Origin: a bacterium
GTDB taxonomy: Bacteria; Patescibacteriota; UBA1384; 2-12-FULL-50-11
DNA length: 54,301 nt
Assembly (NCBI GenBank): GCA_021463485.1
Contig: JAJTYJ010000004.1
Coordinates: 1-54,301, forward strand
Reading direction: 5' to 3'
Notes under the pieces: generated by a model
Databases searched by the model: none
Told to the model about the DNA's origin: nothing
What the model saw: only the letters and a program-made list of their open reading frames with translations
Part shown: positions 31,894-34,262 of the stretch, piece by piece
How the letters are laid out: every line of letters starts with the position of its first letter
Numbering within the stretch: the stretch's first letter is position 1
Position numbers and translations under genes: made by a program

Positions 31894-32274
31894 ATGAGTA
31901 ACGTAGAAAAAATTATCGAACAGGTTGGTGAGCTTTCCGTAATGGAGCTCTCAGAGTTAGTAAAAGGTTTAGAAGAGAAGTTTGGTGTTAGCGCTATGCC
32001 AGTAATGGCAGCCGGTGCTGCTCCAGCTGCTGGTGGCGCTGCTGCGGCCGAGGCTGAAGAGAAGTCTGAGTACAACGTTGTGCTCGCTGCTTCTGGCGAC
32101 CAAAAGATTGCTGTCATTAAGGCAGTCCGTGAGATAAAACAAGAGCTCGGCCTTAAAGAAGCCAAGGATCTAGTTGATGCCGCTCCAAAAGAGCTCGGCA
32201 CAATGAAGAAGGAAGACGCTGAAGCTGCTAAGAAGAAACTCGAAGAAGCCGGCGCAACCGTAGAACTTAAGTAA
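31894..32274 (+). CDS. rplL: 50S ribosomal protein L7/L12
   Basis: Ala-rich hinge [19 protein letters not shown] and C-terminal [11 protein letters not shown]...LKEAKDLVD...[12 protein letters not shown]. Confidence 0.95.
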
Positions 32275-32298
32275 TAACTTATTAATAAGTGAAAAAAA

Positions 32299-32322
32299 GG
32301 AGCCATTTTGGCTCCTTTTTTG
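32299..32322 (+). terminator. intrinsic terminator of rplJL
   Basis: GGAGCCA-TTT-TGGCTCC followed by T6. Confidence 0.8.
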
Positions 32323-32336
32323 TTACAATCGCGCTG

Positions 32337-32891
32337 ATGAGAATCAGTATTGGCGATCGAAAATGTTTAGTGTGTTCGGGTAAGTTACCCACCGAGGTAG
32401 TTATCAGCCACAAGGGAATAGGAGAAACTAAGTGTGCGATTTGTGGAAATAGTACCAATGAGATCTTTGCGCATAGTATATGGTTTAGGACTATGCATAA
32501 TTCACAAAAGTTGCTGAGAGATAAAGAATATAGGGGTGCAGTAATAGAAATATTTTCAGCTTGGGAATCGTTTATAACTCAAAGGATTCGTTTGTGGTTA
32601 TATAAACACAAATCATCAAGCAATGATCTAAAAAAATGCGTACAAGTAGCTGCCGTGATTGGAAAAAGGCAATTAGCACAACAAATGCACAGAATCCTTT
32701 ATCCAAAATTGGCTATTCCGAACGATAACAATTGGGCTGCTTTAAGGAACAAAGTCGCACATGGTGGTTACATCCCAGATGAAAATGAAGCTAGAGAAAT
32801 TGTGGAGGAATTATCAAAAGCAATATTTAGAATATACGACCCCCCAAATGGCGACAGCAACTCGCTATTTTTGGATGAGTATTGGAGATAG
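32337..32891 (+). CDS. zinc-ribbon plus HEPN-like domain protein (184 aa)
   Basis: CLVCSG...CAICGN ribbon. C-terminal LRNKVAHGG fits the HEPN R-x4-H motif. AT-rich. Extended -10 TGTTACAAT at 32321-32329 lies 8 nt before the ATG. Confidence 0.6.
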   Translation: MRISIGDRKCLVCSGKLPTEVVISHKGIGETKCAICGNSTNEIFAHSIWFRTMHNSQKLLRDKEYRGAVIEIFSAWESFITQRIRLWLYKHKSSSNDLKKCVQVAAVIGKRQLAQQMHRILYPKLAIPNDNNWAALRNKVAHGGYIPDENEAREIVEELSKAIFRIYDPPNGDSNSLFLDEYWR

Positions 32892-33120
32892 CGTGAGAAA
32901 CTATTCCTGCCAATTCAGTTTCAGCGATTTATTCCGAGCGCGGTTTGGGCGGGAGATGAATCAAGACGAAAAAGACGAACTATATGCTTTATCCCAGAAA
33001 AAACGCAATAAAAGAGTAGGGGAGTGGGCAAAAGAAGCGGGGTGGTATACTGAAGACCGAAAAGGAAGTGATGGTGTTATATACACCGCATTTTGGAACG
33101 GAGGTGAAAAAAATGAGTGA
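32875..33120 (+). CDS. hypothetical small protein (81 aa)
   Basis: Overlaps the HEPN gene by 17 nt and the next gene by 8 nt. The start choice (32875 vs 32848/32761) is uncertain. Confidence 0.4.
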   Translation: MSIGDSVRNYSCQFSFSDLFRARFGREMNQDEKDELYALSQKKRNKRVGEWAKEAGWYTEDRKGSDGVIYTAFWNGGEKNE

Positions 33121-33289
33121 GCACTATGTTTGTCGAGGAACGTGCGGCGGTAAAAGTGATGTCCCAAAGGCGTGCGATACGGATTCTTGCACGATGGTTG
33201 GTGCGATGATGGAAGCGTGCAACTGTTTTGACGATTTACACGTAAAAGCTGTTGCCGAAGAGCTAACGGACGAAAACGAAGTGGTATAA
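33113..33289 (+). CDS. Cys-rich miniprotein (58 aa), possibly metal-binding
   Basis: Strong SD GGAGGTG. YVCRGTCGG...PKACDTDSC...EACNC carries seven Cys in the first 40 residues. Confidence 0.55.
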   Translation: MSEHYVCRGTCGGKSDVPKACDTDSCTMVGAMMEACNCFDDLHVKAVAEELTDENEVV

Positions 33290-33321
33290 AAAAGTCCTCG
33301 CGCACTTACGGGCGCGAGGAG
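33287..33321 (-). terminator. intrinsic terminator of the hydroxylase-family gene
   Basis: Perfect 10-bp stem GTCCTCGCGC(33294-303)/GCGCGAGGAC(33312-321). U-run on the minus strand (A-run 33287-93). Confidence 0.75.
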
Positions 33322-34262
33322 GACTGGTGCACGGCGAGACGCCGTTTGGCTTCTTGCTTTTTGATGCGGGCTGCGCGGGCATCGACTTTTTCGTCAAGCC
33401 ACTGGAGCCAGCGAGGCGGTTTCGGGGGCTTGAGCGTGTCGGGATCGATCTCCACACCTTCGAGTGGTAGCTCGGAAGGGATATAGAGTGAGCCGAATAG
33501 CTTGTCCCATAGCCAGTAGCCGAATACGCCGCTAATCGCTAGGTTGGTTCTACTGCAACCACGGACGTGGTGCATGAGATGGAACCCGTAGATCGTTCGC
33601 CAAGCCTTCGAGGTTTCGACGCGCTTTTTCCAGTGCTTGTCGTAATCCAGATGCCAGATGGCGTGGATAATCTCGTAGAGACCGAACGAAAACACAACCG
33701 ACATGTAGCCGGTTATAACGATCGGCTGCGATCGCAAGAGTAGCTGCAGTGGGACGAGAACAAGACTGAAGATCCCCCAGAAGGTGACCAGGGCGTAGGC
33801 CGGAAAGGCCGACGACTGAATTTGGTCGCCGTCCTTGATCGCGTACTTGTTTCGAACTTTGCTCCTCGACGCCACTTCAGTGCTACCCTTAAGGTCGGTG
33901 ACGTGCGTAAGGCCGTGATGTTCCTCGTGCTTCCGATGGAGAAACCAGAGGAATTTCCAGAACAGCCCGTGGAGCGTGTAGCGATGAAAGAAGTACTCGA
34001 ACAGTCCCATAAACGCGTGAGCGACGACGAAACAGATCACGTACTCGTACCACGGCGAGTTAAACTGTACGGCAAAGAGCTCCGGCGAGATGCGATGATA
34101 CAGCCACAGTACGAGGCTGATGCACGTGGCTGACTGCAGCACTAGAAACGTACTGAACCAATTGAATTTGAATTCAACGTGTTCTCGGCTTCTGTAGAGG
34201 ACGAGCGGTTTGAGCACGAAAGTTAATAGCCACTTCCATGCAGATTTGACTACGTTGATCAT
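33306..34262 (-). CDS. membrane fatty-acid hydroxylase / sterol-desaturase superfamily protein
   Basis: Histidine boxes HRYTLH, HRKHEEHH, HAIWH and HLMHH within a polytopic membrane protein. G+C-richer than its neighbours. Confidence 0.75.
   Translation of the reverse strand: MINVVKSAWKWLLTFVLKPLVLYRSREHVEFKFNWFSTFLVLQSATCISLVLWLYHRISPELFAVQFNSPWYEYVICFVVAHAFMGLFEYFFHRYTLHGLFWKFLWFLHRKHEEHHGLTHVTDLKGSTEVASRSKVRNKYAIKDGDQIQSSAFPAYALVTFWGIFSLVLVPLQLLLRSQPIVITGYMSVVFSFGLYEIIHAIWHLDYDKHWKKRVETSKAWRTIYGFHLMHHVRGCSRTNLAISGVFGYWLWDKLFGSLYIPSELPLEGVEIDPDTLKPPKPPRWLQWLDEKVDARAARIKKQEAKRRLAVHQSSSRP

Follow-up and report, generated by a model that had tools for sequence, protein, structure and literature searches.

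Directly downstream of the ribosomal protein gene rplL, a Saccharimonadales bacterium (Patescibacteria) carries three overlapping open reading frames. Do these genes work together as one cassette, or is one of them a strain-specific arrival among resident neighbors? A sequence-only reading of the window, the whole 54,301-nt stretch of DNA analyzed here, had described them as an AT-rich trio of a zinc-ribbon–HEPN protein (gene A) and two miniproteins (genes B and C), possibly a toxin or defense module. The three frames lie where that reading had placed them, in the following setting.

31894 to 32274, plus strand: rplL, encoding ribosomal protein L7/L12; Pfam Ribosomal_L12 is found on the same gene in sister contigs; conserved left flank of a variable slot.
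32293 to 32321, plus strand: intrinsic terminator hairpin of rplL, with an A-tract, a GGAGCC/GGCTCC stem and a T-tract; a perfect 13-nt inverted repeat.
32321 to 32329, plus strand: TGTTACAAT, an extended -10-like box, predicted from sequence only to be the native promoter-like box of the B–C unit.
32337 to 32891, plus strand: gene A, an ORF of 184 aa with a predicted zinc ribbon and HEPN domain, pI 9.2.
32875 to 33120, plus strand: gene B, an ORF of 81 aa; a resident gene and member of a small-protein family.
33113 to 33289, plus strand: gene C, an ORF of 58 aa; an acidic miniprotein with six Cys and two His, resident and paired with B.
33295 to 33320, minus strand: terminator hairpin of a convergent 318-aa gene, found by terminator scan; it marks the end of the A–B–C transcription unit.

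Gene B overlaps A by 17 nt, and C overlaps B by 8 nt. The rplL terminator expected ahead of the locus is present. Its arms match perfectly, and its folding energy of -20.4 kcal/mol gives z = -3.9 against shuffled sequence. An Rfam scan of the region returned nothing above threshold, the weak matches being terminator look-alikes. On the far side, the convergent 318-aa gene (window 33306–34262, minus strand) has no Pfam match at E ≤ 1. Its counterparts share 99% identity with it in the species representative and 35–36% in other Saccharimonadales species. Being kept in relatives, it belongs to the conserved right flank.

The drop in G+C that had been ascribed to the whole trio is limited to its first gene. 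The 60-nt line starting at 32521 does contain 19 G+C, and gene A is 38.0% G+C, but the conserved part of B (43%) and C (48%) are genome-like in a window of 46.8%. Because A alone is AT-rich, the AT-rich block stops near 32900 rather than extending over the whole trio. The miniproteins also differ in part from their first description. B is aromatic, as described (12 of 81 residues), but not basic, with 14 K+R against 14 D+E and a pI of 6.3. The strong Shine–Dalgarno sequence of C is there (GGAGG, 8 nt before the ATG), but C has six Cys (positions 7, 11, 21, 26, 36, and 38), not seven, plus two His.

We therefore asked what each gene is, beginning with A. Three features are recognized within it.

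32364 to 32444, plus strand: predicted zinc ribbon of A, C10-x2-C13 ... C33-x2-C36, with C10, C13, and C33 invariant in homologs.
32478 to 32837, plus strand: predicted HEPN domain of A, approximately residues 48–167, all-helical in the AlphaFold model.
32745 to 32762, plus strand: Rx4H motif of A, R137-N-K-V-A-H142, of the catalytic type, with R, N, and H invariant in homologs.

The CxxC...CxxC ribbon noted earlier (Cys at 10, 13, 33, and 36) and the LRNKVAHGG stretch, which fits Rx4H, are both borne out, and two profile matches extend them. A matches PF18735 (HEPN_RiboL-PSP) at 30.5 bits and E = 4.2e-7, above the curated Pfam threshold of 28.4 bits, with the best stretch confined to residues 128–157. 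It also matches the phage family phrog_19381 at E = 4.5e-7, residues 20–163 aligning with profile positions 23–167 of 264. The C-terminal part of that profile is missing from A, which is about 60 aa shorter than family members of 233–245 aa. In eight aligned homologs, C10, C13, C33, E77, R137, N138, H142, G144, and P147 are invariant, and either Cys or His serves as the fourth zinc ligand. These homologs share 21–32% identity yet keep the R-N-x3-H motif and the zinc ligands. Among four family members, two match PF18735 and two match Zn_ribbon_8. Two homologs of A match Csx1/Csm6 HEPN models in PADLOC (E ~6e-5), and the weaker matches of A itself are all to the HEPN parts of Csx1/Csm6 and Cas13. 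On these profile and motif matches, A is a predicted zinc-ribbon plus HEPN protein and a short relative of phrog_19381, as its motifs had first suggested. The shared zinc-ribbon and Rx4H architecture in turn links phrog_19381, an uncharacterized family, to the HEPN superfamily, with A as a putative new, short member.

The start of A was placed by its relatives. The homologs P0006, P0007, and P0009 align from Met1 of A. A GTG at 32289 was considered as an alternative start and ruled out, since all homologs align from the ATG at 32337.

The HEPN fold is a four-helix up-and-down bundle found in endoribonucleases, which normally act as dimers. The AlphaFold model of A has a small β-ribbon followed by six helices (48–61, 65–90, 95–111, 117–125, 132–141, and 149–167), at a mean pLDDT of 60.6, which is low confidence. 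In a Foldseek search of the PDB with this model, the HEPN proteins 2q00, 2hsb, 6tug, 1ufb, 4nqf, and 9bj5 were among the top matches, although the best E value, 0.45, is not significant. The ribbon gave local matches to viral zinc ribbons in a viral library, at a probability of 0.97–1.0 but with E > 0.06. Neither the A model nor a model of B gave a Foldseek match at E ≤ 0.001. Profiles of the A and B families, searched against the PDB, yielded only chance-level zinc-finger or helical matches.

The family is sparsely populated. A full HMMER search of 1.8 billion representative proteins found four relatives of A, which indicates that the short form is rare. A word-indexed search returned A itself only, and tblastn of A against GenBank phages gave no match. 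A scan of viral contigs added five further distant relatives of 233–245 aa. The four of these that were tested score as clear members of phrog_19381 (1e-44 to 1e-58); the fifth, on contig L038, is near-identical in sequence to that on L037.

A has no conserved partner gene. The neighborhoods of four homologs are unrelated to one another and contain no common neighbor and neither B nor C. One phrog_19381 gene (L036:4848–5633) lies between antiterminator Q and holin on a lambdoid-type viral contig of 52% G+C; the gene is 36% G+C, against 53–59% in its neighbors. A second member is flanked by the tail gene Dit and by a large unidentified ORF of 1258 aa. The Q–holin interval is a common cargo-gene site in lambdoid phages, and the phage relatives of A occupy typical accessory-gene positions of prophages. 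The A relative P0009 (242 aa; L006/L007:30–4192), is found within a run of uncharacterized genes, of 472 aa (with a faint AAA_22 match) and then of 252, 200, and 136 aa. This run could be a defense-island-like cluster.

A HEPN fold need not imply defense. A might instead be a selfish gene, a decaying remnant, or an accessory protein that processes or binds RNA. It has no significant family match in the PADLOC 2.0 defense catalog, where its best hit (E = 0.0024) is to the HEPN part of Csx1/Csm6 only. Its shorter length than phrog_19381 members and the rarity of the family, with its four relatives among so many proteins, point the same way. Against this, the R-N-x3-H motif and the zinc ligands are invariant in homologs of 21–32% identity. 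Three independent short-form members have the same length and a conserved C-terminal L-x-L-D-x-Y-W tail. Variability between strains, AT-richness, and accessory positions in prophages also fit conflict genes. We consider an A without a role in defense unlikely.

To see whether A, B, and C travel together, we compared the region after rplL across strains. All three genes together were found only in identical copies of this strain. Among contigs of sister strains, located through B and C, at least 14 (L011–L017, 14 contigs read) instead carry an empty allele, consisting of rplL, terminator, B, and C, in which only 63 nt separate rplL from B. The species representative (L030, Patescibacteria group bacterium BroJett034, L10 99% identical) has the empty allele as well. 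In a third allele, found in L001 and L002, an unrelated 203-aa membrane-anchored protein encoded at 35% G+C occupies the same spot. Other Saccharimonadales species carry different AT-rich genes right after rplL, either one of 205 aa or a pair of 192 aa and 160 aa, each with a hydrophobic N-terminal segment. Kinship among the variable post-rplL genes of strains and species was considered and rejected, as they are unrelated to one another. The position after the rplL terminator is a strain-variable slot, and two further features describe its contents in this strain.

32328 to 32900, strand not applicable: strain-specific segment of about 573 nt and 38% G+C, replacing about 15 nt of the empty allele, from alignments with L011, L030, L001, and L002.
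32343 to 32357, plus strand: left copy of a 15-nt direct repeat, with the right copy at 32875–32889 (the start of B); 13 of 15 bases match.

Relative to the empty allele, homology is kept through the terminator stem and GTTACA, is lost at about 32328, and returns with codon 10 of B, at TATTCCTGCC (about 32901). The first nine codons of B (MSIGDSVRN) are therefore supplied by the insert. On either flank, the match to the empty allele weakens with proximity to the slot. On the left, identity is 98.8% in rplJ, 95.8% in the 5′ half of rplL, and 91.6% in the 3′ half; on the right it is 92.4% in B, 95.5% in C, and 96.7% in the next gene. This pattern fits the import of a diverged allele by homologous recombination and not site-specific insertion. 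The direct repeat was weighed as a mark of site-specific insertion and set aside, being near chance (an estimated 0.3 or so expected in 800 nt); as a link between the 5′ ends of A and B it is only suggestive. Small AT-rich palindromes between the rplL stop codon and the terminator also differ by allele: ACTTATTAATAAGT (window 32275–32292) in this strain versus GAATTCTAATTTAGAATTC in the empty allele (L011 3939–3958).

These alleles bear on the proposal that A, B, and C form one toxin–antitoxin or defense cassette, with B and/or C as an unconventional antitoxin or partner of a HEPN toxin. The genes do overlap and are probably co-transcribed in this strain. The earlier remark that no MNT antitoxin is present also stands, as no nucleotidyltransferase gene adjoins A or any homolog, which leaves room for a partner of another kind. 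But B and C do without A in the sister strains and the species representative, follow an unrelated gene in L001 and L002, and occur as a pair without A in a more distant relative, L029. Homologs of A are never found near B or C, and the AT-richness is limited to A. When co-occurrence was surveyed, the trio was essentially never found together elsewhere, and neither the three-gene unit nor B or C as a partner of A survives that survey. We regard the cassette proposal as very improbable. A, B, and C are not a three-gene cassette; B and C are resident neighbors of a strain-specific A.

The start signals of A follow the same division. As the first reading had it, the -10-like box lies just before the A start, with TACAAT ending at 32329, the ATG at 32337, seven bases between, and no Shine–Dalgarno sequence. 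The empty allele has TTTTTGTTACATT, then 8 nt, then the ATG of B, with the same terminator stem upstream. Since terminator and box precede B when A is missing, the box belongs to B–C, and A sits between the box and B. The layout is not peculiar to this locus. Of the 45 long-ORF starts in the window, 10 have a TAnnnT hexamer beginning 12–14 nt before the ATG, compared with 4.9% of other ATGs, an enrichment of about 4.5-fold (p = 5e-5). Such enrichment makes a leaderless-type layout ordinary for this genome. From the same 45 starts, about 60% of window genes are missing a Shine–Dalgarno sequence. The letters of the window thus suggest that many mRNAs of this Saccharimonadales genome may be leaderless, and a leaderless start of A is plausible. 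None of the RNA runs searched contains A. In the metatranscriptome of a relative with the empty allele, rplL, the intergenic region, and B–C lie on one RNA contig. Because this contig crosses the terminator, the unit may also be fed by read-through from rplL, besides any leaderless promoter.

We next consider what the resident genes are. At least 74 clusters of 66–89-aa proteins, mostly from candidate-phylum bacteria, make up the family of B; organism names on two of the clusters are Levybacteria and Gemmatimonadota. B is conserved from Y10-S-C-Q-F-S-F onward, and its model (pLDDT 78) has three helices and a β-hairpin. A Foldseek search of the PDB with this model gave no significant match. Neither B nor C has a significant match in Pfam, NCBIfam, or PADLOC. 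A genome-collection scan with B and a blastn search of GenBank phages with B–C also gave none. C is 97% identical in sister strains, and its placement behind B is limited to this species group and L029. All six Cys and both His are retained in the L029 homolog of C, at an identity of 51%, suggesting that C is a metal-binding miniprotein. A PDB profile search with C returned one match, to a designed repeat protein, judged to be chance.

Outside the species group, B has various upstream neighbors. In one clade (L008–L010 and L021–L028) it is always directly behind a DUF2130 gene. Elsewhere the gene ahead of it encodes either an XRE-type HTH protein or a membrane protein of 480 aa that matches DUF2157 below threshold. 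The DUF2130-linked clade has a conserved block of RNase_T, DUF4112, DUF2130, and B, with an AAA-like protein carrying an OmpR-type Trans_reg_C domain nearby. B-family genes of 44% identity are also present on L041 and L042, contigs binned as IMG/VR 'GVMAG' giant-virus MAGs, which may be viral or may be mis-binned candidate-phylum DNA.

One idea is that B serves as a generic small partner (a regulator or an antitoxin of the toxin-first type) for whatever effector adjoins it upstream. A and B would then be a pair, and C would be irrelevant. Tight junctions recur as this would predict: the 17-nt overlap with A, an ATGA overlap with the 203-aa membrane protein, a 1-nt gap to the 480-aa protein, and either an overlap or a 12–26-nt gap behind DUF2130 in many contigs. 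The topology of the B model is known in small DNA-binding proteins, though the fold match is not significant. In the commonest allele, however, B comes first, behind a terminator, with no upstream partner, and in L029 the upstream gene is on the opposite strand. DUF2130–B synteny looks vertically inherited and not mobile, and homologs of A occur without B. A partnership of A and B thus has a low probability. A broader version would make the post-rplL site a dedicated exchange slot in Saccharimonadales, in which AT-rich conflict genes from outside (a HEPN RNase in this strain, single-pass membrane proteins elsewhere) take the resident leaderless promoter and couple translationally to B as a common regulator or neutralizer. 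We hold this to be a long shot as well. If true, the slot would act as a mix-and-match, toxin-first module among bacteria regarded as having few defense systems. Saccharibacteria and other candidate-phylum bacteria have tiny genomes and few recognized anti-phage systems.

The reading that we find probable is that A is a stand-alone, Abi-like HEPN RNase in a slot after rplL that is swapped by recombination. The resident order is rplL, terminator, -10-like box, B, and C, with B beginning 8 nt past the box and lacking a Shine–Dalgarno sequence, in a leaderless-type layout (step 1). In this strain, a 573-nt AT-rich segment with A lies between the box and codon 3 of B, having arrived most likely by homologous recombination through the rplL and B–C flanks (step 2). 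A would now take the resident start signals, and B would be reached by translational coupling via the 17-nt overlap (step 3). The A protein would probably be a dimeric, metal-independent endoribonuclease acting through R137 and H142. It would remain latent until switched on, probably by a phage component that the zinc ribbon helps to sense (step 4). The outcome would be a single-gene abortive-infection or exclusion defense in which B and C are neither antitoxin nor partner (step 5). A HEPN RNase without regulation would be toxic, which counts against a stand-alone A, and no candidate regulator was identified.

As a solo HEPN gene that is present in some strains and absent from others at one fixed slot, A would be a further candidate for a defense gene in candidate-phylum bacteria. 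The locus would also give a clear case of within-species gene swapping at a ribosomal-protein locus. The leaderless-type start seen there is that of the resident genes, and starts of this kind are frequent in this genome. Current understanding is unchanged by these results, as solo HEPN defenses and variable accessory slots are both established themes.

How does A compare with known systems? PF18735 is the 'Ribo L-PSP-HEPN' family of Anantharaman et al. (2013), named for fusion to endoRNase L-PSP and found in operons with ParB (PMC3710099). A reading of 'RiboL' as ribosomal protein L7/L12 was rejected, because the term refers to endoRNase L-PSP (PMC3710099), so the position of A beside rplL carries no family meaning. 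A has in common with this family the conserved Rx4H motif and a score above threshold. It differs in that no match to an L-PSP fusion or a ParB operon is found in A or its neighbors, in having an N-terminal zinc ribbon instead, and in aligning best at the motif helix only.

With phrog_19381, A shares a CxxC...Cx2-3(C/H) ribbon, the predicted HEPN domain, and the motif F/L-R-N-K-V-x-H-K-G-x-I-P, and members of that family are likewise AT-rich accessory genes. They differ from A in length (~233–245 aa), in their C-terminal extension, in using His as the fourth zinc ligand, and in location, being found on viral or prophage contigs and not, like A, on the chromosome of a candidate-phylum bacterium. 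HEPN–MNT toxin–antitoxin systems of type II/VII likewise rely on a HEPN RNase with Rx4H; they differ from A and its homologs in the adjoining nucleotidyltransferase.

The closest functional models for A are HepS of the Gifsy-1 prophage (PMC13043305) and Tha of S. aureus prophages (PMC11087260), each a single HEPN defense without an antitoxin that is turned on by a phage tail protein. Both are accessory, stand-alone HEPN proteins with an Rx4-6H motif and no co-occurring partner, and both are harmless until a phage protein triggers them. Neither has detectable sequence similarity to A or is among its PDB sequence or fold matches. The text of neither the HepS (PMC13043305) nor the Tha (PMC11087260) paper mentions a zinc ribbon. 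Given the lack of sequence similarity, the likeness of A to HepS and Tha would lie in how the proteins may work and not in family membership.
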